Below, in pieces: positions 41,479 through 54,120 of a stretch of 64,000 bases of DNA (the first letter of the stretch is position 1; each line of letters begins with the position of its first letter). Source of the stretch: Rickettsiales bacterium (GTDB taxonomy: Bacteria > Pseudomonadota > Alphaproteobacteria > Rs-D84); the NCBI GenBank assembly GCA_031283185.1, contig JAITCH010000009.1:1190-65189 (forward strand). Reading direction: 5' to 3'. The notes below the pieces were generated by a model. The model worked only from the letters and a program-made list of their open reading frames with translations, made no database searches and was not told the DNA's origin. Made by a program: the position numbers and the translations under genes.

Positions 41479-43953
41479 TTACTTCAACGGCGGGAAACAT
41501 GTTTCTTCGTCCCCTTTATTCAGATTGACGCAACATATCTCACTACCATCAGCTTCTTTAACATATTGTTCACCGACTGACGGGCAGCAACCGAAAGCGT
41601 CGGTTTGGCTGCCGTCATCACAGGTTAGTCCTGCGCCGAAAGCGGCGGCGGACTCGGGCTGATTGGGATTGGAAAAGATCTGTTGTTCCAGTGTTGGAAG
41701 TGCGGCGGCTGGTGCAGTGCCGGGCTTCATAATGTTTCCTGCGGCATCGTATTGCAGACCCAGGTATTTATTGTTTCCGTGGGCGTCAAGGTTATTTCCT
41801 GCGGCTTGGGCATTCTGTTGCTGCTGATATGCTTTTTGTTGCGCGACATATTGTGATTCATACATACTTGATTTATCCAAAAATTCTCTAAGAAATGGTG
41901 AGTTTGCATTATATTCAATTTTCCCTGTGGCAGGATTAACATTTGTTCCGCGCACCTGCCCAACCCAATCCGGATCACTGGCTTTGCCTTTAAGAGTCGT
42001 AGCCATTGCTGTTGCATCATCCAAATTAAAGTCTTTGCGCCCTCTATATGAAGTAGGCGTCAAACCTGCCGTTTGATCAATATTGCTCCAATTTACAATA
42101 ATATCTTTATTGGACAGAACTGTGATGCGGGTTCCTGCTGGTATGGTGAATGGAGGCGTCATATTATCCATCATATCAACAAATAATTTCTGCGTTACTT
42201 TGTCCCACGACTTTATAATTTCCTGTTTGGCCAATTCGGACGAACGAAGTTGCCCGCTCTGCGTAACAGTGTTATTGTTCAGGTCGATTTGATTAACAAA
42301 CTTATCAGATATTGGCGCGACAAGATTGACTGCGGCAGGGACAAGTGATGCCGCCATTGGCATAACGATTTGTTCCAAATAATCTGTGGAACCGCGCCCT
42401 GGAATACCCATTCGTCCCTGTGCATCCGCGGAATATACACTTTTATTAGGCAGATAAAATTCCACTCCATCTGGCCGTATCATTTGATACCATTCAACTT
42501 GTATTCTTCCTATGGTCTTATATGGTCCTGGATATTCTGACCCTGTAACAAATCCATAAATAACCGTTCCTGTCGGAATAATTATATTGCGTTCGCTGTC
42601 GGAGAATACATTTCTGTCGACAACCGCACGAACTGGCAGTTCATGTATTCTGGCATCAACACGAATATCACTGACTATTGTTGCTGGTATGGACTTGAAA
42701 GCGCGCATAACGAACTTACGATTAAAAGTTGTTGCCGTAGATATAATTGCATCATTGTTATCAGCAGACAAAGGCTTCAATACACTCTGCTCCTTAGGTT
42801 TTTCAAATGGTCGTCCTGCCGAACCGATTTGCAAACCACCCAAATCCGCTGTTTCAAGTTGTCTTGCCTTGTTGACTGCGCGTGGTACCGAACCAGAACC
42901 ACTCAGTTGCGGGATACCGCCTTTTGATCGGATTGCTCCACGGGTAGAATTGACATGTTCCGCGTCCGAGCCGATTTTTTTATTTTTATCGCGCAGGTCG
43001 TATATAAAGCCGGTTTCTATATTATATTCGCCAGTGGGTTTTTGGCAGTCGTTGTCGGCAAAAGGATGCGCCTTGAAAGTTCCGTTATCCGGGCGAATAA
43101 AGAATGCTTGTTGACCTGACAGGTTGTATCCGACGAAGGCATATTTATAACAATCCTCCACCGCCGAATCAAATGAATAGTCATCTTCTAAATTCCCCGC
43201 CAAGGGTGGCGGGGTGGCGGCATCGCCGCCGGGGTGGTTCGATGTTCCCCCTCCAAGTTGTATTGGCTCCGCAACCGCCGGACTGCTTACCACTTCCTCA
43301 GCATCTGTCATTCCCGCGAAGGCGGGAATCTCAGATTGTTCAGAAACTATCGGCGCAGCCGGCTCCGATGAATTCCCCGCCAAGGGTGGCGGGGTGGCGG
43401 CATTGCCGCCGGGGTGGTTCGACTCATCCGTCGCCTTCACCGACTCCACATTTTCACTTTTAACTTTTGATTCTTCACTCTTAACTCTCAGCGCAATCGG
43501 CACGACGAATTTCTTTGCGGCCTCCGCGGGCGCGCCGACATCGCTGTGTGCGATGATGATTTTTGCATTGCCGCTTTTCGCGCCTTTTGCGGGTTTCCAA
43601 ATCAGGTTAACATTGCAAGGAATTCCAGCGGCGATGCGTTGAAGTCCCGCGCAAGTATTGGTCATAGTCAAACTGGAATCTTTGGATTCCAAAGATACGC
43701 CGTGTATTGCGATTTCCTGTTCAGAAGAAATGACGATGGATTCTTTGACTTCCTGCCCGGATACCGATGCGATGGATATATCAGACGGAGTGGCTTTTAT
43801 GATGGAATTGCTTGCGCCCAGCCCGCCGCCTTTGCCACCTGCGCGTGGTAGGATTACGACTGCGAATATCAGGAGTAGCATTGCGGCGATACCAAGTAGA
43901 GTCCAGCGCAAGTATGCGGGACTAGACTTTTTGATATTCTGAATATATTGCAT
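41479..43953 (-). CDS. Type IV secretion system VirB10/TrbI-like protein (possibly DotG/IcmE-like), with in-frame palindromic-element inserts
   Basis: TM helix. C-terminal IPTGTVIYGFVTGSEYPGPYKTIGRIQVEWYQMIRPDGVEFYL...GIPGRGSTDYLEQ matches the VirB10 beta-barrel domain. Inserts encode EIPAFAGMT and NHPGGDAATPPPLAGN. Start trimmed to MQYIQNIKK at 43953. Confidence 0.65.
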   Translation of the reverse strand: MQYIQNIKKSSPAYLRWTLLGIAAMLLLIFAVVILPRAGGKGGGLGASNSIIKATPSDISIASVSGQEVKESIVISSEQEIAIHGVSLESKDSSLTMTNTCAGLQRIAAGIPCNVNLIWKPAKGAKSGNAKIIIAHSDVGAPAEAAKKFVVPIALRVKSEESKVKSENVESVKATDESNHPGGNAATPPPLAGNSSEPAAPIVSEQSEIPAFAGMTDAEEVVSSPAVAEPIQLGGGTSNHPGGDAATPPPLAGNLEDDYSFDSAVEDCYKYAFVGYNLSGQQAFFIRPDNGTFKAHPFADNDCQKPTGEYNIETGFIYDLRDKNKKIGSDAEHVNSTRGAIRSKGGIPQLSGSGSVPRAVNKARQLETADLGGLQIGSAGRPFEKPKEQSVLKPLSADNNDAIISTATTFNRKFVMRAFKSIPATIVSDIRVDARIHELPVRAVVDRNVFSDSERNIIIPTGTVIYGFVTGSEYPGPYKTIGRIQVEWYQMIRPDGVEFYLPNKSVYSADAQGRMGIPGRGSTDYLEQIVMPMAASLVPAAVNLVAPISDKFVNQIDLNNNTVTQSGQLRSSELAKQEIIKSWDKVTQKLFVDMMDNMTPPFTIPAGTRITVLSNKDIIVNWSNIDQTAGLTPTSYRGRKDFNLDDATAMATTLKGKASDPDWVGQVRGTNVNPATGKIEYNANSPFLREFLDKSSMYESQYVAQQKAYQQQQNAQAAGNNLDAHGNNKYLGLQYDAAGNIMKPGTAPAAALPTLEQQIFSNPNQPESAAAFGAGLTCDDGSQTDAFGCCPSVGEQYVKEADGSEICCVNLNKGDEETCFPPLK
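43190..43460. mobile_element. Palindromic elements inserted in-frame within the VirB10-like CDS
   Basis: aattccccgccaagggtggcggggtggcggcatcgccgccggggtggttcga (two copies) and gtcattcccgcgaaggcgggaatctc. Confidence 0.8.
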
Positions 43954-43974
43954 TACATCCGCCAATTCTATCTC

Positions 43975-44095
43975 TCTAAATTCCCCTTCGCTGGCGAAGG
44001 GGTGTCCGCCTTCGGCGGACGGGGTAGTGGAATTCCCCGCCAAGGGTGGCGGGGTGTCCGGCGTAGCCGGACGGGGTGGTTCGCTACAATTACTC
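43975..44095. repeat. Palindromic elements
   Basis: aattccccttcgctggcgaaggggtgtccgccttcggcggacggggtagtgg; aattccccgccaagggtggcggggtgtccggcgtagccggacggggtggttcg. Confidence 0.8.
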
Positions 44096-44112
44096 GCCAG
44101 GATTTTTTGTCA

Positions 44113-45624
44113 TTACTGAATCCTCACCACATTGCACGCAGTGTTCTGGAACTTGGAAAGTTTCTCACACAACTGCTGCGCTTCATCAATGGACGACAGC
44201 GGACCTACTCGCAACCGATATAACCGCCCTGCGGACGCGCTGGTTCCAAGCGGCCCCACGCCTTGTTCATCAACGGCGAAGAACACTTTGGACGCATATG
44301 GTCCCAAAATACCTTGTCCGCCACCAGCCGAGAAATTCGCCAATAATTTATTCCAGTATTCGCTGAGTGCCTTGACCGAGGTGTCGGATTGAAGTTCAAC
44401 GGCGACACCTTTTTGATTGCTGGCGATTATCGGGACATCTCGGTTTGGCAAGTATGCTCCGGCGGTCAGGCGCGGCGCGGCTCCACCACTGCCGATAAAG
44501 GCATCGTGATCGGTTCCACCACCGCCGCCACCCATCATCATCACGGGCGCGCCATACATAGACGAAGTATCAATAGTTCCATACATCATATTTTGATCCA
44601 TCATCATTCCGCCGCCCATATAGGCATTGTTCAACGAAGTGTTGGAATTCATGCGTTGCATAACATTTGCCTCGGCAAGTGCCATCACGGACGCGGAGTC
44701 GGATATAAGGAATGGCTTGGCGCGTTTCTTTATGCAAACTAACCGCTGACCAGAGCGCAAGACCATATCGCCAACTGCTTCAACTATCAGCAAGCGGCCA
44801 TCGGGGCCATCAGTGCGGAATCCGACCGGGGATTCGCCGCCCTCTATTAATACGCTAACGACTGGCCGTTGAGTCATTGCGATTACCTTGTCGCCGAAAT
44901 CAATGTAAGTGAAAATTCGGTCGCGCCATACGCGTTCCGGGGCGATGACATAGTCGTCTGGGTTGGGGACGAAGATGTCGAGGTCAAAGCGGAATTCGGA
45001 CGGGTCGATTTTCATACTTTTTATCCAACCATAGTCTTCGCCATCAAAGCTGACTGCCGGGGCGGAAGATTTGCCTTTGTTGATTAATGACTTGCTGCCG
45101 AATCCGTTTGAGCCATTAGAGCCGCCGGATATAAGACCCTGACGACCTTCAATGGTTATGTCGACTTGCGAGTATGTTATTTCGGACGCGTTTGCGGGTT
45201 CCGAGCGAAGATAGAAAACATACTTGTTTCCAGATTTTCCTTCAACGATCATATTGGTATCCGAACCTTGATTTTCTGCCTTTGGAGAAATAGATATGGT
45301 TCGTTTTCCAGTCAAATTATTTAGGAATTCGAATAGCGCATTGTTTCCGATAATGGCATCTGCGATTTCCTCACCTTCTGGAAGATTGATTATTGTTACC
45401 ATACCTTGGCGTAGGCGGATTGTCAAAATTGTTCCTGGCGACCAAGATAGTTGTGCATATCCGGGGCGGGACGAACCGGCGGCCATATTGGCTTCGGGAT
45501 TATCCCAAGCATTTTGGACACCGAATTCGTTGGCCATTGCGTTTGACGCGGCGAATAGCATAACCGCCACCATTAACATTGCCGTCAATTCCCCTCCGAA
45601 TAAAATCTTTTTAACTTTCATCAT
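44113..45624 (-). CDS. VirB9/TrbG-like (possibly DotH/IcmK-like) secretion protein with Gly/Met-rich linker and C-terminal SPOR-like domain
   Basis: Signal peptide. Central beta-rich domain. GGGMMMDQNMMYG...MMMGGGGGG low-complexity linker. C-terminal RLYRLRVGPLSSIDEAQQLCEKLSKF is SPOR-like. Confidence 0.5.
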   Translation of the reverse strand: MMKVKKILFGGELTAMLMVAVMLFAASNAMANEFGVQNAWDNPEANMAAGSSRPGYAQLSWSPGTILTIRLRQGMVTIINLPEGEEIADAIIGNNALFEFLNNLTGKRTISISPKAENQGSDTNMIVEGKSGNKYVFYLRSEPANASEITYSQVDITIEGRQGLISGGSNGSNGFGSKSLINKGKSSAPAVSFDGEDYGWIKSMKIDPSEFRFDLDIFVPNPDDYVIAPERVWRDRIFTYIDFGDKVIAMTQRPVVSVLIEGGESPVGFRTDGPDGRLLIVEAVGDMVLRSGQRLVCIKKRAKPFLISDSASVMALAEANVMQRMNSNTSLNNAYMGGGMMMDQNMMYGTIDTSSMYGAPVMMMGGGGGGTDHDAFIGSGGAAPRLTAGAYLPNRDVPIIASNQKGVAVELQSDTSVKALSEYWNKLLANFSAGGGQGILGPYASKVFFAVDEQGVGPLGTSASAGRLYRLRVGPLSSIDEAQQLCEKLSKFQNTACNVVRIQ

Positions 45625-46252
45625 TTGAACTATGCTCCTCGGTTGCCGTATCAAGGTTTTCGATTCTGTAATCTGCTACTTGCACTCCAAAGGGGTTATC
45701 CAGTCGGTCATTCCAACGAATGTTCCTGCTGTCTTCAAAGTGTAGTTTCAGTATTATTGTAGCCTCTTCTTGGGTGGTGTGTCCAGCGACAAGTTCCTTT
45801 ATTTTTCGGACACGGATTGCGTATCGGTCTTGCCCTCGGGGCGTTGGATTTTCAAGGAAAACTATACGCGTAGTCCAGAATGGTTCAGCGGCCAGGACTT
45901 CCTTTGTCAAGGGTTCTGCGGAGAATTCACGAAAAACTTCTGATGTTGACCAGGCGCGAACACGGCCTGTCATACCCCAGCGGCGGGACATAGTGCGCGA
46001 TGATGGGTAGACGCTGAGGCGTTCGACGACATATTGGCGGATGAAGTTTTGTTTGAATAGCTCTAGGTTTTTGGCGTCTGGGTAGTATGGGGCGACGGCT
46101 ATGTAGCGTTCAGATTCTGCGGCGAAGAAGACTTGTTTTTTAACGAGCGGGAATAGTCCGTCGAGTGTTGCCCACAGGACGAATATGACGACGAGTTGGG
46201 CTGCGAGTGCAAAGCCCATGATACGGGACATAATGAATCCCGGAGTAATCAT
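45611..46252 (-). CDS. Type IV secretion VirB8/DotI-like protein
   Basis: N-terminal TM helix, then NTF2-like domain ending in ...NPFGVQVADYRIE (compare the VirB8 C-terminal NPLGFQVTSYR). Confidence 0.65.
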   Translation of the reverse strand: MITPGFIMSRIMGFALAAQLVVIFVLWATLDGLFPLVKKQVFFAAESERYIAVAPYYPDAKNLELFKQNFIRQYVVERLSVYPSSRTMSRRWGMTGRVRAWSTSEVFREFSAEPLTKEVLAAEPFWTTRIVFLENPTPRGQDRYAIRVRKIKELVAGHTTQEEATIILKLHFEDSRNIRWNDRLDNPFGVQVADYRIENLDTATEEHSSNDES

Positions 46253-46324
46253 TTTGTATAGTTCTCCCTACTTTGAGCAAGGGTAGCAATTTTGGAACAC
46301 CTAACGCAAGCATAAAAATACGGC

Positions 46325-46510
46325 TAAAAATTCCCCACTTTTCTTTTGTCATTCCCGCGCAGGCCGGGATATTTGTAATAAGTCATTGCCCGACTTGATC
46401 GGGCAATCTCGGCAAAAAATTCCCCTCCAAGGCTTGTCGCGCCGTAGCGAAGCGCAGGCGGATGGAGGGGTGTCGCGCCGTAGCGAAGCGCAGGCGGACG
46501 GGGTGGTTAG
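46325..46510. repeat. Palindromic element array
   Basis: tgtcattcccgcgcaggccgggat; gtcattgcccgacttgatcgggcaatc; aattcccctccaaggcttgtcgcgccgtagcgaagcgcaggcgga (two copies)...ggggtggtt. Confidence 0.8.
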
Positions 46511-46524
46511 AAAATTTTCTCACC

Positions 46525-47310
46525 TTATTTAACTGTTATCCCAATTTTTTCCATAGAGGCCTTAAAGTTGGCAAGGTCCTGTTCCCATTTATCAATCAGT
46601 TCCTTTTTCTTTTCAGGCGGGAGTTTCATATTATCATCATCCGCCACCCATTTAGCTGATTGTTCTAAAAGCTCTTTCATCCTCTCATCAAAATAACTTT
46701 GATTCCATTCTGTATTTGACTTTTGAGCCTGCTCGGTTTGATTCTGATTGTCTGCTTGCTCTGTGCTTTCCGAAGCTTTCGCCTGACAATCCGACCATCC
46801 GCTCTTTTGGCAAACTTGGACTTTGTCGTCTTGGCAACTTCCACCATAAGTATTCTTATTTTTAGAGCCGTGCCCAAAAACATTTTTACCATCATCAAAC
46901 CTAACATCGCAGCAGTGATATACTTTTTTGCCATCCTCTGGAATACATTTTTTTGCACCCGCATCCTCGGCCTGTTTCAATATTTTTTCTATTTTTTTAC
47001 TATCTTTATCGTTCGCCCCACTTTCCGAGGAAACTTTTGCCTTTTTATTATTTTTACATCCTGCTTTTTTGTTTTCGAAGAAAACATCTTTTTGAGACTT
47101 GCATTCTAACACTTTATTGAATTCTGTCCTTAACTGTTCGGGACTAACATTGTCGCCAAGAAGAATGTCAAAAGATGTTGGACTCTTATCTCTCAATTCT
47201 TTTAACAAATCTTTGGTATCTCTCATGTCTTCTGCAGATGCCGGATATGCTATACCTAGGCATAATGACGAAATAATAATGGAGCGAAATAATGCGCGCA
47301 TTTTCAACAT
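46525..47310 (-). CDS. Secreted lysine-rich cysteine-motif protein (CC...WSDC family)
   Basis: Signal peptide MLKMRALFRSIIISSLCLGIAYPASA. YHCCDVRFDDG...SGWSDCQAK motif shared with the 811-aa neighbour. Confidence 0.6.
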   Translation of the reverse strand: MLKMRALFRSIIISSLCLGIAYPASAEDMRDTKDLLKELRDKSPTSFDILLGDNVSPEQLRTEFNKVLECKSQKDVFFENKKAGCKNNKKAKVSSESGANDKDSKKIEKILKQAEDAGAKKCIPEDGKKVYHCCDVRFDDGKNVFGHGSKNKNTYGGSCQDDKVQVCQKSGWSDCQAKASESTEQADNQNQTEQAQKSNTEWNQSYFDERMKELLEQSAKWVADDDNMKLPPEKKKELIDKWEQDLANFKASMEKIGITVK

Positions 47311-49739
47311 TTTCTCTCATCTCCGCTTTGAATGGCATTTATCTCACATTGTATTGATTTCAATATCTCTTTTATTTCTATCTGTGTCTGAACCAAAACT
47401 TCGCTATAACCTTCATCATCCGCATCTGTCGGGTCGTCCTTTTTATTCGGCTCATTGCTATCTTTTTGTGTCTTGCATTCCGACCAACCATCTTTAAGGC
47501 AATGGCTTTGCTGACCGGATTCGCATTTTCCATTTTTATCAACGGCCCTGCCATTTATACCAAGAATATCTCCAGTTTTGCGAGAATATAACCAAGCACC
47601 AATAACTGGTCCATCCGTAGTAATAATCGCCAAATCCCCTTCTTTTAATTTTGAATTGCAGCAATACATATCTCCGCTTTCATTTGGCATTGGATCGGCA
47701 AAACAGTGTTCTAAATCCTCATTAGCTTTTTTTCTAAGCTCTTCCGCAGCGGCTATTTTTTGTTTATCTTTTTCTTCCGCTTTCGGAGTTTTGGAAGAAC
47801 ATCCCGTCCAGCCGTCTTTTGCACAATAATTCTTACTTCCCTCGTTGCACTTATCTGCATTTATATCATAGTCAATAGTTGCATTATTTTTATATTCACT
47901 AAGCCATTTTGTGCAATTTTTACCATTTTGGTCACAAACCTTTTCTTCTTTAAGATCAGAGTTGCAACAATAATATTCTCCAACCTGCTGTCCTTTGTTA
48001 TTTTTCAGCTGAATACATTTTTTAGTCATTGCCTGTGCTTTGGATTCATTGGATTGTTCACAGTCTGACCAATGAGATTTGAAACCACCTCTGCCAGAAC
48101 CGACACATTTGCGCTCATATCCATTTTTTTCACAGATGTCTCGGGCTTCCCCGATTTTATTATAAGATATATATGCTTTAAGTTCGGCTCGAATTTCATC
48201 ATATTTTTTATCTTTTATTCCGCAACACTCATACACATAATATTCGTCCGGACGGTCATTTTGGTAGCCTGCCGCCAGACAAACTCCCCCATCTATATCC
48301 GCCTTAAATTCTTTTTCTAATTTTTCATCCTTTGCTATATTTTTTTGCAAATCTTTAATTTCTTTATCTAATTTTTTTTGTTTATCTTCACACTTTGACC
48401 ATTTGCCGCCGCTTTGACAAGTCCGTTCTTGATCTTCGCTCTTGCAATTCGTTTGGTCCACACCACCCGTCCGAATATCTTTAATTGGATATGCTCCGGC
48501 TATTAATGACACTCCTTCATCTTGACTTAAATCACAGCAGAAATGGTAAATATCGCTATCCTTTCCTTTTACGCATTTATTTTTAAGTATTTTTTCAAGA
48601 TCTGCTTCTTTTTGATTTTGTCCCTTGGTATTTTTGCAATCCGACCATTTCCATTCTCCACCATAAGATGAATTTCCAGTATCGGAGGTATCTGCGACGG
48701 CACTTCCTCCTTGATACATACAAGTTCTTTCTTGTCCTTCATAGTTGCAATCTATTTTATTGCTTTTGCCTTGTTTATATGTTTGCGCCAATCCTGCAAA
48801 TTTTTCACCGCAGCAATGGGTTTTCCCATCAAGACCTTTCTTGCACGATTGCGAGTTTGCGAATTGTTCTCTTTTGTTCGCATCGTTCTTTGCTTGATTT
48901 TCAACTGCTATTCTGTCTTTCTCTGCTTGTATTTTCGCAGCCTCGTCTGCCTTTCGTTTGTCCTCAGCTACTTTGGCCAGTCGCACAAGTTCTTTATCTT
49001 CCTTGCATACCCATGTTTGGGATTCGCAAGTTAATGCCGCTGTATTTTTGCAAAAAGTATCTTTTGGATCGGTCAGAATTCCGCCGTTTCCAATTTGCAT
49101 AACCACCCTTCCGAGACCTAATTCTAGCCTTGTCCAATGATGCCCCACGCCAATTCCACAACAAGTATAAGAGCCGGATGTTAATTCTTTGCATTTTTGG
49201 TCGGCTTTCATTTTCTTTATTTCGTTTTCGTTTTCCGCTTTTGTTCTGGCAGCTTGGCTTGCTTGCTGTGATGCTTGGTTTGCTGCTGCGGAATCGGCGG
49301 CGGAAAAATTGGAATTTGCGGCTGCGGCACCTTGATTATCATCTCTCGCACGATTGACCTGTTGTTCTGATTTTACTGGGCACGAACAAATTACGGATTT
49401 TCTGTCGGCCGATCCTGATCTAGACTCACAATATTTTTCTAAAATTTGTTTTCGCCAAGCATCCTCAGCCATTGAGAATTTAGTATATTCTTCTATTACT
49501 GCTCTTGATGGATATTTATCTGTTTCACTTTTTTCTAATGAAATTTGTTTTCCACATTCAGCAAATGCGATCGCCTGGGAAATTTGTAAATTCAGAGTTA
49601 AAAAAACAAAGGCAGAGCAAAATAACCTAATAGAGTTTATAGGTGTGTGTGTGTGTGTGTGTGTAGGTTTCTGCCATTTTTCATTGTCTCGCCTGTTTTT
49701 CTTATGTCTAATTATATCAGATTCCAATCCTATTTCCAA
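47304..49739 (-). CDS. Large secreted repetitive lysine-rich cysteine-motif protein (HxCC...WSxC repeats); 5' end runs through an (AC)11 tract
   Basis: Signal peptide LFCSAFVFLTLNLQISQAIAFA immediately 3' of the THTHTHT-encoding (AC)11 tract. Repeated HCCGEK/HFCCDL/YECCGI/YYCCNS/MYCCNS and WSDC/WSKC/WTGC/WSEC motifs. The track start is a TTG overlapping the -35 box, so the true start is uncertain (see findings). Confidence 0.6.
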   Translation of the reverse strand: MEIGLESDIIRHKKNRRDNEKWQKPTHTHTHTPINSIRLFCSAFVFLTLNLQISQAIAFAECGKQISLEKSETDKYPSRAVIEEYTKFSMAEDAWRKQILEKYCESRSGSADRKSVICSCPVKSEQQVNRARDDNQGAAAANSNFSAADSAAANQASQQASQAARTKAENENEIKKMKADQKCKELTSGSYTCCGIGVGHHWTRLELGLGRVVMQIGNGGILTDPKDTFCKNTAALTCESQTWVCKEDKELVRLAKVAEDKRKADEAAKIQAEKDRIAVENQAKNDANKREQFANSQSCKKGLDGKTHCCGEKFAGLAQTYKQGKSNKIDCNYEGQERTCMYQGGSAVADTSDTGNSSYGGEWKWSDCKNTKGQNQKEADLEKILKNKCVKGKDSDIYHFCCDLSQDEGVSLIAGAYPIKDIRTGGVDQTNCKSEDQERTCQSGGKWSKCEDKQKKLDKEIKDLQKNIAKDEKLEKEFKADIDGGVCLAAGYQNDRPDEYYVYECCGIKDKKYDEIRAELKAYISYNKIGEARDICEKNGYERKCVGSGRGGFKSHWSDCEQSNESKAQAMTKKCIQLKNNKGQQVGEYYCCNSDLKEEKVCDQNGKNCTKWLSEYKNNATIDYDINADKCNEGSKNYCAKDGWTGCSSKTPKAEEKDKQKIAAAEELRKKANEDLEHCFADPMPNESGDMYCCNSKLKEGDLAIITTDGPVIGAWLYSRKTGDILGINGRAVDKNGKCESGQQSHCLKDGWSECKTQKDSNEPNKKDDPTDADDEGYSEVLVQTQIEIKEILKSIQCEINAIQSGDERKC

Positions 49740-49760
49740 AGCATTTTTTCCTTACCCCCT
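49600..49760 (-). promoter_or_regulatory. Conserved promoter/leader module with (AC)n tract, copy 1
   Basis: On the coding strand: TTGGAA, 17-nt spacer, TATAAT, then ATGAAAAATGGCAGAAACCTAC(AC)11. The same module is found at 60764-60897 and 63785-63925. Confidence 0.6.
49643..49664. repeat. Dinucleotide repeat tract (GT)11 / (AC)11
   Basis: Read directly: aggtgtgtgtgtgtgtgtgtgtgtagg. Confidence 0.95.
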
Positions 49761-49769
49761 CTTGTCGCG

Positions 49770-49830
49770 CTCAAAAGTCCCCTTCGCTGGCGAAGGGGTG
49801 CGCCCGCAGGGCGCGGGGTAGTGGTTAAAA
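49770..49830. repeat. Palindromic element
   Basis: gtccccttcgctggcgaaggggtgcgcccgcagggcgcggggtagtggtt. Confidence 0.8.
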
Positions 49831-51278: not shown

Positions 51279-51280
51279 AG

Positions 51281-51340
51281 TCCCCTTCGCTGGCGAAGGG
51301 GTGGATGCCGAAGGCAGACGGGGTAGTGGTAATAAAAAAT
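51281..51340. repeat. Palindromic element
   Basis: gtccccttcgctggcgaaggggtggatgccgaaggcagacggggtagtggtaat, identical to the unit at 13800. Confidence 0.85.
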
Positions 51341-51357
51341 AGCAGCCAACAATATAA

Positions 51358-51600
51358 TTAAAACAAATTTTTAACAAGTGCCAAAATTTCTTTCTGAGGA
51401 ATTCCTAGTGCTTTGCATACATCTATCAGTTCCACGACATCCAGTCGTCTATCCTTGACTTCAAATCTTGAAACATAAGATCGGGGCACTTTTAAGATCT
51501 CGGCCAATTGGCGTTGAGTTATACCTTTGGCTATGCGAAAACTTACCACTTGTTTAATCAAGTGTTTATATCTGTCATCAAAAATCGTTTTTGCCCTCAT
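51358..51600 (-). CDS. XRE-family helix-turn-helix transcriptional regulator
   Basis: 80 aa. ITQRQLAEILKVPRSYVSRFE HTH. Confidence 0.7.
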   Translation of the reverse strand: MRAKTIFDDRYKHLIKQVVSFRIAKGITQRQLAEILKVPRSYVSRFEVKDRRLDVVELIDVCKALGIPQKEILALVKNLF

Positions 51601-51747
51601 AATGAGGACATACTACTCGTCTTGACTTATGCACTCATATTGCGGGCGAATTGTATTGACCGCGTTGGAATAAAAACCTATAATTGCACTCAATATGCGG
51701 GCATACCGCCCCATATAAACTTAATAACAAAACCAAAGGATTGTAAA

Positions 51748-52779
51748 ATGAAAAAGTTAATTTTGTTATTACCATTTATGCTTGCCTCCTGTGGTGGAGG
51801 CTTGTTCAGCTATCCCAATGATCCCAACAAACTTCCGCAAATTTCAAGGGTAAGCACGGCAACGGCGGCCAACAATGCGAAAATAACAGGAATGGTGTCC
51901 GAGATAGGCGTTGATACCGAAGGCAATCATACCAATTTGGCGCGTTCTGCATCCGGCACGGCCAATATAAGTGGCAAGACATATAAATTATACAGATTAG
52001 ATGACGCCAATTTCAAGGCTGCAATGGGCAATGGAAAGCCCGACACAATGAAATTTGTTATTGATAAGAACGGAAAAATAACTGGCATTCATTTTGTTGA
52101 AGAAGCCGTTTTCAAAGGCGAATTGAAACGACAAAATGACACAGGCAATTTTATAGTTAACGCGGCGGCGAACGGAAATGCGACAGGTTCTTTTGCTTAT
52201 GACAGCATTGGGAAACAACTTGGACTTTCGTATTCAGATTTTGGAACGATGACTTTCAACGGATCTGTTGGCGGAGAAAATTTTACCAATGTCAAAGTTC
52301 CTTTTGCTGGCGGATATGAAATAAAAAAAATTAACAAAGGCGATATTGCCGGCGAAGCAAAATTTACAGGACGAGCCATAGGATATATTGAAGCACAAGG
52401 CCAGGGTCTGCACAACCTTATCCCTGCGAGCGCAAAAAATGCCACTCTTACATTTAACGCGGGCAAGGAAACCTTGGAAGCGAATTTCAGCAACTGGTAT
52501 GATGTGAAGATTAGCACATTTGCCTACAATGATATTTCCGTGCAGTTTATCGGCAACGGGAAAAACGCGCCACAGGCATATAAAGATGGTTTTACTACAA
52601 ATGAAGGCGATGTCAGATATTTTGACACAAACTATTATGGCGACAAAAAAATCCCAAGCGAAGCCACGGCATTATTTGAGTATAGCGTTCTAGCGACAGA
52701 ACAAAATGGCGCGCCTCGGAACGACCCGAATTATGATTGGAATTTGACGCTTGGTTTTGGCGGAACAAGAACTCAATAA
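51748..52779 (+). CDS. Surface lipoprotein (TbpB/fHbp-like beta-barrel lipoprotein; putative Slam substrate)
   Basis: Lipobox MLASCGGG. LSYSDFGTMTF and AKFTGRAIGY motifs typical of Slam-dependent surface lipoproteins. Stop codon abuts the next gene's ATG. Start trimmed from the track ORF. Confidence 0.55.
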   Translation: MKKLILLLPFMLASCGGGLFSYPNDPNKLPQISRVSTATAANNAKITGMVSEIGVDTEGNHTNLARSASGTANISGKTYKLYRLDDANFKAAMGNGKPDTMKFVIDKNGKITGIHFVEEAVFKGELKRQNDTGNFIVNAAANGNATGSFAYDSIGKQLGLSYSDFGTMTFNGSVGGENFTNVKVPFAGGYEIKKINKGDIAGEAKFTGRAIGYIEAQGQGLHNLIPASAKNATLTFNAGKETLEANFSNWYDVKISTFAYNDISVQFIGNGKNAPQAYKDGFTTNEGDVRYFDTNYYGDKKIPSEATALFEYSVLATEQNGAPRNDPNYDWNLTLGFGGTRTQ

Positions 52780-54120
52780 ATGAAAAGAATAATTGTTGTT
52801 TTAATATACTTGATTCTGCCGACCTTTGCGTCGGCAGAATCTTCTACTACAAGCGAAATAACAATGTCGGCGGTTGACGCGCTTAAACTGGCGGGGGCGT
52901 TTGTCGAGCGCGAAGATTTCAATAGCGCGGAACAAATTCTTACAAAAATGCCACCGCTTGATAATGGAGTGTTGGAAGTAGAGCGTTGGTTTTTGATGGG
53001 CAGGATTTCTGCATTTCGCGGGGATTTTGACACAGCGATAAAAATATATCGTCGGATTCTTGACGCGCAGCCGAATCTTGCAAGGGTTCGCTTTGAATTG
53101 GCCGTTTGTTATACAAAACTGGGACAATGGTGGCGCGCGGATTATCATTTACGGCTTGCTATGGCCGGGGATGATTTACCTGACGAAGTTAAAAATATAA
53201 TGAATTATTTCCGATATTTTGTGCGACAAAACAAGAATTGGAATGCTTGGTTCAGTTTCGGAGCCGCGCCTGATAACAACATAAACTCAGCGGCAGGCGG
53301 CGAAGAATGCGTAATGACGATATTCGGTTTGATGTGTCGACAATTGCCAGAACCGGAACGCGCGATAGGATATAACTTTGTCCTTGGCGGCAATTACGAA
53401 TTCAAGTTATCCGACCAATGGCGATGGAAGTCCGAGGGAAACATTTACACAAATGCATATGACAAATCCAAATACGATGATTTATATTTATCCGCCAGCA
53501 CAGGCCCGCGCTATGTTTGGAAATATGGCGATGTTTGGCTGGCTGGAATCGCTGCTCGTCGTTGGTATGGCTGGGAAGGTTATAATTGGTCAACAGGCGC
53601 AAAAATAGATATAAATTACGATTTCTCACGCAAGTTATTAGGAGGGCTGTCATTGCTCGCGTCAAAAAATATCTATGATAATTTCAGTGAATATATGGAT
53701 GGCGAAACATATGGCGCGAATGCGCGGCTGACATATTACATAGATGCGGATATGTATATTATTTTGCGTAGCGGACTTGATAGGGAAATCACAATTGACT
53801 TGATTTATTCCAATTGGCGACCAAGTGTTGGCGCGGGATTTGGGATTGAATTACCGGCACGATTCAGCGTATATTTTGACACTAATTTCTATTGGCAGGA
53901 TTATGATGGGCAAAGGTGGATTGTTAAGGACAATTCATTTTCACAGGTTGCAGAACATAACTTTACGCATAGATATGCGGTGTCGGTATCAAATAGCAAG
54001 TTCAGGGTTTGGGATTTTGCGCCGATGCTTACATTCAGTTATACCAGGCGCGATTCTAACATCTGGCAGCGGGAGTATGACAAATGGGCAATTGAATTTT
54101 CAATGCAACAGCGATTTTAA
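52780..54120 (+). CDS. Slam-like outer-membrane protein (N-terminal TPR plus DUF560 beta-barrel)
   Basis: Signal peptide. TPR-like helices (AEQILTKM...YRRILDAQPNLARVRFELAVCYTKLGQW). Tyr/Trp-rich beta-strands. C-terminal ...FSMQQRF aromatic terminus. Confidence 0.6.
   Translation: MKRIIVVLIYLILPTFASAESSTTSEITMSAVDALKLAGAFVEREDFNSAEQILTKMPPLDNGVLEVERWFLMGRISAFRGDFDTAIKIYRRILDAQPNLARVRFELAVCYTKLGQWWRADYHLRLAMAGDDLPDEVKNIMNYFRYFVRQNKNWNAWFSFGAAPDNNINSAAGGEECVMTIFGLMCRQLPEPERAIGYNFVLGGNYEFKLSDQWRWKSEGNIYTNAYDKSKYDDLYLSASTGPRYVWKYGDVWLAGIAARRWYGWEGYNWSTGAKIDINYDFSRKLLGGLSLLASKNIYDNFSEYMDGETYGANARLTYYIDADMYIILRSGLDREITIDLIYSNWRPSVGAGFGIELPARFSVYFDTNFYWQDYDGQRWIVKDNSFSQVAEHNFTHRYAVSVSNSKFRVWDFAPMLTFSYTRRDSNIWQREYDKWAIEFSMQQRF

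Follow-up and report, generated by a model that had tools for sequence, protein, structure and literature searches.

A small family of exported, cysteine-rich modular proteins behind a putative (AC)n phase-variation cassette in an alphaproteobacterium of the Rs-D84 order

Two adjacent minus-strand genes in a 64,000-nucleotide (nt) stretch of the 194,574-bp contig JAITCH010000009.1 (hereafter the window), from a metagenome-assembled genome (MAG) of an uncultured alphaproteobacterium from termite gut that NCBI labels 'Rickettsiales bacterium', encode an 811-aa and a 261-aa protein built from the same six-cysteine module (MDR2685510.1, LBB23_01905, and MDR2685509.1, LBB23_01900, respectively, as found by exact look-up). 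We favor, with some reservation, the reading that these two proteins and an unlinked paralog, P0008, are Sec-exported, disulfide-rich, phase-variable modular proteins, located on the surface or secreted, and restricted to this lineage. A preliminary description of the locus had spoken of a variable surface-protein family under repeat-tract control: the exported modular family and, in silico, the repeat control both stand, and surface exposure is suggested by the kinds of genes that such repeats switch elsewhere. The coordinates of the features discussed are collected in Table 1.

Table 1. Features of the module-protein locus and its surroundings (window coordinates; a slash between residues marks a predicted signal-peptide cleavage site).
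Feature	Position	Strand	Remarks
811-aa open reading frame (ORF)	47304..49739	-	from the ORF list
Cassette promoter	49711..49739	-	TTGGAA, 17-nt spacer, TG-n-TATAAT; 10/12 matches, extended -10
Two out-of-phase start codons, ATGAAAAATG	49675..49684	-	ATG1 49684-49682, ATG2 49677-49675
(AC)11 tract	49643..49664	-	5' coding region; codes for (His-Thr)n in the signal-peptide n-region
Rest of signal peptide, PINSIRLFCSAFVFLTLNLQISQAIAFA	49560..49642	-	predicted cleavage AFA/E by the -3/-1 rule
Mature protein of the 811-aa ORF	47304..49559	-	4-Cys N-terminal region, six 6-Cys modules, Cys-free charged linkers, 2-Cys C-terminal tail
Module 1 (aa 183-245)	49193-49005	-	variant, ends TWVC
Module 2 (aa 299-368)	48845-48636	-	
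Module 3 (aa 389-450)	48575-48390	-	
Module 4 (aa 487-560)	48281-48060	-	
Module 5 (aa 575-647)	48017-47799	-	
Module 6 (aa 679-755)	47705-47475	-	
261-aa protein	46525..47310	-	own signal peptide (ASA/E), one module at aa 122-175 (nt 46947-46786), 8 Cys when mature
Gap between 261-aa gene and virB8	46253..46524	-	two 36-nt REP-like palindromic repeats (46430-46501)
VirB8	45611-46252	-	type IV secretion system core (41479..46252), downstream, same orientation as 261-aa gene
VirB9/CagX with C-terminal SPOR domain	44113-45654	-	type IV secretion system core
VirB10/TrbI	41479-44043	-	type IV secretion system core
(AC)n tracts of the window	49643-49664, 60794-60810, 63818-63840		three cassette copies (49640-49740, 60790-60880, 63818-63905)

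The six-cysteine module

The module follows the pattern C1-x(9-17)-aromatic-x(0-1)-C2C3-variable stretch-C4-x(7-8)-C5-x(3-27)-W-[STVN]-x(1-8)-C6, with an ending that can be shortened to C-x(7-8)-C-x-G-W-S-x-C. Six copies were counted in the 811-aa protein, for which five or more had been announced, and a single copy in the 261-aa protein, and all the motifs listed beforehand (HCCGEK, HFCCDL, YECCGI, YYCCNS, MYCCNS, and WSDC/WSKC/WTGC/WSEC) were recovered. All 11 modules (six in the 811-aa protein, one in the 261-aa protein and four in P0008) retain these six Cys and the Trp. A strict regular expression for the module matched five times in the 811-aa protein, whereas 5000 residue shuffles gave 0.025 matches on average and never more than 1, and this result, together with the independent profile match described below, supports the claim that both proteins share CC...W-S-x-C modules.

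As described earlier, both proteins are lysine-rich (12.3% in the 811-aa and 14.9% in the 261-aa protein vs. a window median of 6.8%), and the linkers between modules are charged: they contain no Cys and few Pro or Gly residues, and 36-58% of their residues carry a charge, a composition which suggests helical spacers. The earlier label "secreted" agrees with the Sec-type signal peptides that can be read in both sequences (...AIAFA/ECGK in the 811-aa and ...YPASA/EDM in the 261-aa protein). The number of Cys in the mature proteins is even (44 and 8, respectively), and even counts behind Sec signal peptides would fit oxidative folding outside the cytoplasm.

Pairwise identity between modules is only 21-38%, so that they appear to be old duplications rather than a recombination-prone array. 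No DNA-level repeats were found between modules beyond ~28 nt of low complexity, and recombinational copy-number variation, a possibility raised in the preliminary description, is therefore unlikely. The start of the 261-aa gene overlaps the stop of the 811-aa ORF by 7 nt (ATGTTGA), and since its ATG thus lies within the end of the upstream frame, the arrangement suggests translational coupling of the two genes.

A third member in the same genome

A profile built from seven modules was searched exhaustively against 1.84 billion representative proteins. This search returned both query proteins (the 261-aa protein at E=1.8e-12, though it was among the profile's own input sequences), a weak local match termed P0007, and one independent protein, P0008, at E=7e-5. 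P0008 (MDR2685943.1, LBB23_04190, 749 aa) is encoded on another contig of the same MAG, with dksA on one side and yajC-secDF on the other, and has four clear modules, which BLASTP aligns colinearly (E=5e-5) to modules 3-6 of that 811-aa protein. When searched at full length against 5.8 billion clusters, the 811-aa protein and P0008 each matched only itself, and a local hidden Markov model run over 139 fetched loci of related genomes found no further module, with the caveat that a lone module, if divergent and absent from the training set, would fall below detection. Overall, the family comprises three proteins and 11 modules, all within one MAG, so that family expansion, the absence of which was to have counted against the preliminary description, is present on a small scale (one extra member). 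The coupled gene pair would thus form, with the unlinked P0008 gene, a lineage-restricted family of Sec-exported proteins.

Another candidate for a third paralog, the 218-aa protein encoded at 60044-60700, was rejected: it contains no module, only C-x15-CC-V at its end (hhalign probability 0.08%), and what holds of its earlier description is that its gene follows an (AC)n cassette copy. The C-terminal Cys tail of VirB10 was also tried as a copy of the module and does not match it.

The C-terminus of P0008 consists of a hydrophobic segment (...TNWKRLGFDAAGAVAVGALGG...) and ~35 further residues (locus L001, 12000-12250). This end is similar to the NW-x-AATVVGGVGV hydrophobic anchor found in small coiled-coil proteins encoded behind cassettes at four 'Candidatus Enterousia' loci, and P0008 and these proteins may share a C-terminal membrane anchor.

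Known domains and predicted structure

Sequence searches of Pfam, NCBIfam and PDB gave no match for the 811-aa protein, the 261-aa protein, P0008 or the module itself; the module thus falls into no known domain family there, and the proteins, as first described, do not look like enzymes. AlphaFold models made from the 11-module alignment were all-beta and of low confidence (mean predicted local distance difference test, pLDDT, of 58 and 63), with the C-terminal C4-C5-W-C6 part alone reaching a pLDDT of 72-83, and every Foldseek match had E>3. Each protein would accordingly be pictured as a string of small, probably all-beta modules, in which the six Cys would form three disulfides in the periplasm, set apart by Cys-free, highly charged and probably helical spacers.

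The only hint of a relationship came from hhalign comparison of the module with the repeat of P0007, which aligned 17 columns (C..Q.RTC..G.WS, 53% identity, E=5e-4) at a probability of only 32%. P0007 is an unrelated 1218-aa NHL-repeat protein with at least eight tandem 59-aa repeats (aa 36-510) that belong to no Pfam family; the repeat reads C..HG...Y...C..ETQTRTC..GTWS.WSG....C and has the 17-column motif in common with the C-terminal half of the module. Sushi/CCP domains, pacifastin-type inhibitors, VWC domains and the P0007 repeat are all like the module in size (55-80 aa), in predicted all-beta structure and in the C-terminal C-x7-8-C-x2-3-G-x-W-S motif. However, the C/CC/C/C/C spacing with its adjacent CC sets the module apart from small disulfide-rich extracellular modules and is unmatched by anything found. 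We regard the module as an orphan domain, without detectable relatives among ~15 billion proteins, and for this reason as a candidate new extracellular fold.

A dinucleotide tract behind two start codons

The strongest promoter-like site on the minus strand (TTGGAA-17-TGnTATAAT, 49739..49711) includes, as part of its -35 hexamer, the TTG with which the listed 811-aa ORF begins, and this TTG is therefore unlikely to be transcribed and to act as a start codon. Promoters homologous to this one were located at 60847-60875 and 63877-63905, and four copies of the cassette formed by promoter, leader and tract could be aligned. Two out-of-phase ATG codons follow the promoter at the 811-aa gene, with GCAGAAACCT between them and the tract; (AC)11 is 11-18 nt away from the two start codons (ATG2 and ATG1) and precedes the hydrophobic signal-peptide core.

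When the number of repeat units was varied in a frame simulation, both ATGs led only to 13-18-aa peptides at n=8, 11 and 14, the frame was open from ATG1 at n=7, 10 and 13 (MKNGRNLHTHT...PINSIRLFCSAFVFL...), and it was open from ATG2 at n=9 and 12 (MAETYTHTHT...). Because neither ATG is in frame at n=11, the assembled sequence represents, in silico, an OFF state that is a single slip away from either ON state. The P0008 gene shares this promoter and leader; its tract has n=7, at which the equivalent of ATG1 is in frame, in agreement with the NCBI start call for this protein (MKTRRNLHTHT...). To this extent, frame analysis of the (AC)11 between the ATGs and the signal-peptide core upholds the repeat-tract control that had been proposed. 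Expression of the 811-aa protein would be set by slipped-strand changes in the tract: from the OFF state at n=11, loss of one unit would restore ATG1 and gain of one unit would restore ATG2.

A portable cassette in related genomes

A scan of public contigs for GCRGAAACCT(AC)4 recovered 73 metagenome and 64 genome loci. At most of them, a Shine-Dalgarno sequence and an ATG precede ...GAAACCCGCAGAAACCT or AAAATGGCAGAAACCT, and the tract and a signal-peptide core follow in this order. The genomes are nearly all 'Candidatus Enterousia' or unclassified alphaproteobacterial MAGs (rumen, faeces, termite gut) and represent the Rs-D84 order (PMC12306168); matches to the DNA pattern in Pontibacterium/Oceanospirillaceae were discarded as chance coding matches with n=4. 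A single MAG can hold many copies: RUG11635 has at least 14 cassette loci, and JAZROY01, an Enterousia MAG, has at least 9 copies. Examples of the cassette are seen at locus L112 (3482-3590) and locus L008 (1189-1260), and the leader comes in two types, ATG-GCR-GAA-ACC-T(AC)n and ATG...GAA-ACC-CGC-AGA-AAC-CT(AC)n. The cassette had no Rfam match in the window, and neither it nor (AC)n phase variation is described for this lineage in the literature searched.

Across cassette loci, the tract is 4 to 25 units long, and in other genomes and metagenomes four clusters of loci with flanks at least 93% identical differ in n (17.5/19.5; 7.5/11.5/14.5; 16.5/19.5; 5.5/4.5). Of the cassettes that precede a long ORF, 24 are in frame (ON) and 54 out of frame (OFF), i.e., ~1/3 are ON, which matches the prediction of unconstrained frame switching. 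The genes behind the cassettes encode secreted proteins of several kinds: Flg_new with a Cys-rich tail, LRR-like, collagen-like, other Cys-rich, and small coiled-coil/transmembrane proteins. In the termite MAG Emb289P3bin18, the closest relative sampled (83% identity in ClpB), the place of the 811-aa gene, in divergent orientation to the LysM-M23 peptidase ortholog, is taken by an LRR-like gene behind a cassette; this difference indicates that the cargo of the cassette turns over rapidly. Promoter, leader and tract together make up a portable cassette placed before many secreted proteins in Rs-D84/Enterousia-type alphaproteobacteria.

Many MAG contigs end at or beside a cassette (within ~130 nt at eight loci). 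The repeated cassette probably breaks short-read assemblies, and genes driven by it are therefore likely under-represented or truncated in these MAGs.

Translational phase variation of this general type is known from the opa genes of Neisseria, which have CTCTT repeats in the signal-peptide coding region, and from sabA and babB of Helicobacter pylori, which have CT dinucleotide repeats. The H. pylori gene oipA (hopH) likewise carries CT dinucleotide repeats in its leader-peptide region and is switched ON and OFF by slippage (PMC10564699). The 811-aa gene is like opa and oipA in that a simple sequence repeat (SSR) with a non-triplet unit sits inside the 5' coding region of an exported protein, shortly downstream of its start and within the part for the leader peptide, and in that gain or loss of a unit toggles, in silico, between an intact ORF and early termination; tract polymorphism is seen in the cassettes of relatives (the four clusters above), and the genes belong to multigene sets whose 5' ends are conserved (for oipA, see PMC10564699). 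Unlike opa and oipA, the repeat unit is AC, coding for (His-Thr)n, two out-of-phase ATGs allow translation to start in 2/3 of the frames, the promoter-leader-tract cassette is common to unrelated genes across an order of gut alphaproteobacteria, and the module proteins are not outer-membrane beta-barrels. Phase variation through an SSR in the signal-peptide region is a classical mechanism type; the new elements are the orphan module, the AC tract with two out-of-phase starts, and the portable cassette across an uncultured order.

Surface or periplasm

The likeliest role of the family would be that of variable cell-surface or secreted binding proteins, for which stochastic ON/OFF switching would diversify what is presented to partners, hosts or phages. 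Several observations weigh against this interpretation. No outer-membrane anchoring or export signal was recognized in the 811-aa and 261-aa proteins, and the hydrophobic segment plus ~35 residues at the C-terminus of P0008 would fit an inner-membrane-anchored periplasmic protein. Tract-length variation is known from the cassettes of relatives and not from the 811-aa locus itself, two ATGs that make 2/3 of frames potentially ON are atypical, and ATG2 has no obvious Shine-Dalgarno sequence. Structure prediction was poor and gave no fold or disulfide map, and the family is seen in a single MAG only, so that purifying selection is not assessable.

Some of these points would equally suit proteins of the periplasm or envelope that never reach the surface, for example spacers or scaffolds that are either anchored in the inner membrane (P0008) or free in the periplasm, with (AC)n a mutational hotspot tolerated in accessory genes. 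The signals recognized are of the Sec type only (no outer-membrane targeting, autotransporter, lipobox or Slam-type signal was recognizable), P0008 ends in its hydrophobic segment and short tail, and VirB9 of the neighboring cluster has a peptidoglycan-binding SPOR domain. We nevertheless consider a purely periplasmic location improbable. Bacterial genes switched by SSRs overwhelmingly encode surface or secreted structures. One such gene is oipA (PMC10564699), and the cassette-driven genes of relatives code for typical extracellular repeat proteins (LRR-like, collagen-like, Flg_new).

Adjacency to a type IV secretion system

The minus-strand gene order in the window is 811-aa ORF, 261-aa ORF, a 272-nt gap, virB8, virB9/CagX and virB10/TrbI. 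The adjacency to the core of a type IV secretion system (T4SS) reported in the preliminary description is thus direct, virB8-9-10 lying immediately downstream of the 261-aa gene and in the same orientation. This position invites a reading, which we hold to be doubtful, in which the 811-aa and 261-aa proteins work with the T4SS, either as substrates that leave in two steps (Sec export with oxidative folding in the periplasm, then release through VirB8-10, as for pertussis toxin and Ptl) or as accessory or adhesive T4SS parts, and in which untranslated mRNA of the 811-aa gene in its OFF state could lower virB8-10 expression by polarity.

Such a link draws on four observations. A scan found no promoter- or terminator-like site on the minus strand in the gap (46253-46524) that separates the gene pair from virB8; signal peptides and many Cys are also features of pertussis toxin subunits; at five Enterousia loci, too, a cassette gene for a Cys-rich secreted protein adjoins virB8; and VirB10 of this lineage has a conserved Cys-rich C-terminal tail. 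However, only two of the three family members lie upstream of virB8-10, and as the P0008 gene lies elsewhere, away from T4SS genes, a functional connection is unproven. The Enterousia neighbor is divergent from virB8 and belongs to another family (Flg_new), the VirB10 tail is not a module, the Pfam, NCBIfam and PDB sequence searches revealed no homology of the 811-aa protein, the 261-aa protein or P0008 to T4SS components (VirB, VirD, Cag, Trb or Ptl) or to known effectors, and the REP-like insertions in the gap speak against a tight operon. With ~10-15 cassettes per ~0.9-Mb genome, some adjacency is also expected. The unlinked paralog, the lack of T4SS homology and the high density of cassettes make the substrate reading less likely, and it is kept alive by the precedent of Bordetella pertussis, in which the ptx genes for Sec-exported toxin subunits share an operon with ptl and directly precede it (PMC8402538). 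As in ptx-ptl, genes for Cys-containing proteins with signal peptides precede VirB homologs in the same orientation (PMC8402538); unlike there, the proteins show no similarity to pertussis toxin subunits, only virB8-10 follow, and one family member is unlinked. T4SS secretion of the module proteins is purely hypothetical.

A bolder version, to which we give little credence, casts the (AC)n cassette as a portable three-state switch (ATG1, ATG2, off) over the main partner-contact machinery of Rs-D84-type bacteria, with the module proteins as Sec-exported, disulfide-knotted adhesins or substrates working with VirB8-10, in which VirB10 has a conserved Cys-rich tail of its own. The T4SS core itself would then be phase-variable, because an untranslated 3.2-kb mRNA upstream of virB8 would be prone to polarity.

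VirB10 extends ~200 aa past the TrbI domain and ends (41479-41630) in a six-Cys tail, LTCDDG..DA.GCC...(13-16)...CC...(6-10)...CFPP, a lineage-specific T4SS feature which is kept in this MAG and at two rumen Enterousia loci, and the SPOR domain of VirB9/CagX is also present in the Enterousia orthologs (~60% identity, full length).

Finally, it is very improbable that the 811-aa gene is a frameshifted, decaying pseudogene with functionless relics of modules, as might be read from the lack of an in-frame ATG at n=11 and from the absence of the family from all other genomes searched, given that the 2.4-kb frame past the tract is still open in a reduced lineage of high coding density (PMC12306168), the 36/36 module Cys and the Trp are intact, the 261-aa gene keeps its coupled start, the paralog P0008 is in frame, and a one-unit slip restores either start.

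What the cassette may mark

Members of the Rs-D84 order are uncultured gut bacteria with reduced genomes (<1 Mb), thought to depend on partner cells (PMC12306168). Since the cassette heads many secreted proteins per genome, it marks genes that are varied stochastically, and this gene set is a likely interface with partners, hosts or phages. The cassette also offers a simple sequence handle for listing switched genes in any MAG. The practical value is moderate, as the mechanism is classical and the protein family has so far been seen in one MAG only.

Other cassette copies and elements of the window

The second cassette copy (copy B, 60698-60880) has (AC)8.5 in a 37-codon upstream ORF (MAETYTHTHTQRF...LLQK). 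In its present frame, this ORF passes a weak hairpin with a T-run, and its stop falls on the 218-aa gene's Shine-Dalgarno sequence; in the other two frames, it stops ahead of the hairpin. The 218-aa gene in turn overlaps a gene at 59163-60056 for a 297-aa secreted protein with an HEMIH (HExxH-like) motif and no Pfam match. The third copy (copy C, 63749-63905) combines a promoter with 11/12 matches, (AC)11.5 and a strong terminator-like hairpin (14-bp stem and T-run) with no long ORF, and one of its frames contains a signal-peptide-like remnant (LNSNKPNFARNFLSAIASAIALSLF, then a stop). Between copies B and C, only the latter has a terminator recognized by the scan. Copy C could be either an orphan cassette or an attenuator for a downstream 100-aa repeat protein (63226-63528).

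A leader-peptide/terminator type of phase variation via GCAGA repeats has been described for pil1 of Streptococcus gallolyticus (PMC3894217). Copies B and C are like pil1 in having the tract in a short upstream ORF before a hairpin and T-run, and by the same logic their tract length might set how far ribosomes reach towards or through the hairpin. This likeness is limited to copies B and C, and the 811-aa gene differs in that its tract is inside the coding region.

GC-rich REP-like palindromes (core ...GTCGCGCCGTAGCGAAGCGCAGGCGGA...) recur between genes of the window, at 46430-46501, ~49770-49830, 51280-51340, 58860-59100 and 63640-63720. They yield spurious ORFs with motifs such as "PFAGEGV", and similar elements flank Enterousia cassettes. 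At 51508-54120, a gene for a 423-aa lipoprotein (lipobox LASC, no Pfam match) is directly followed by a gene for Slam (surface lipoprotein assembly modifier, PF04575), so that this gut alphaproteobacterium seems to have a surface lipoprotein paired with the Slam on which it depends.

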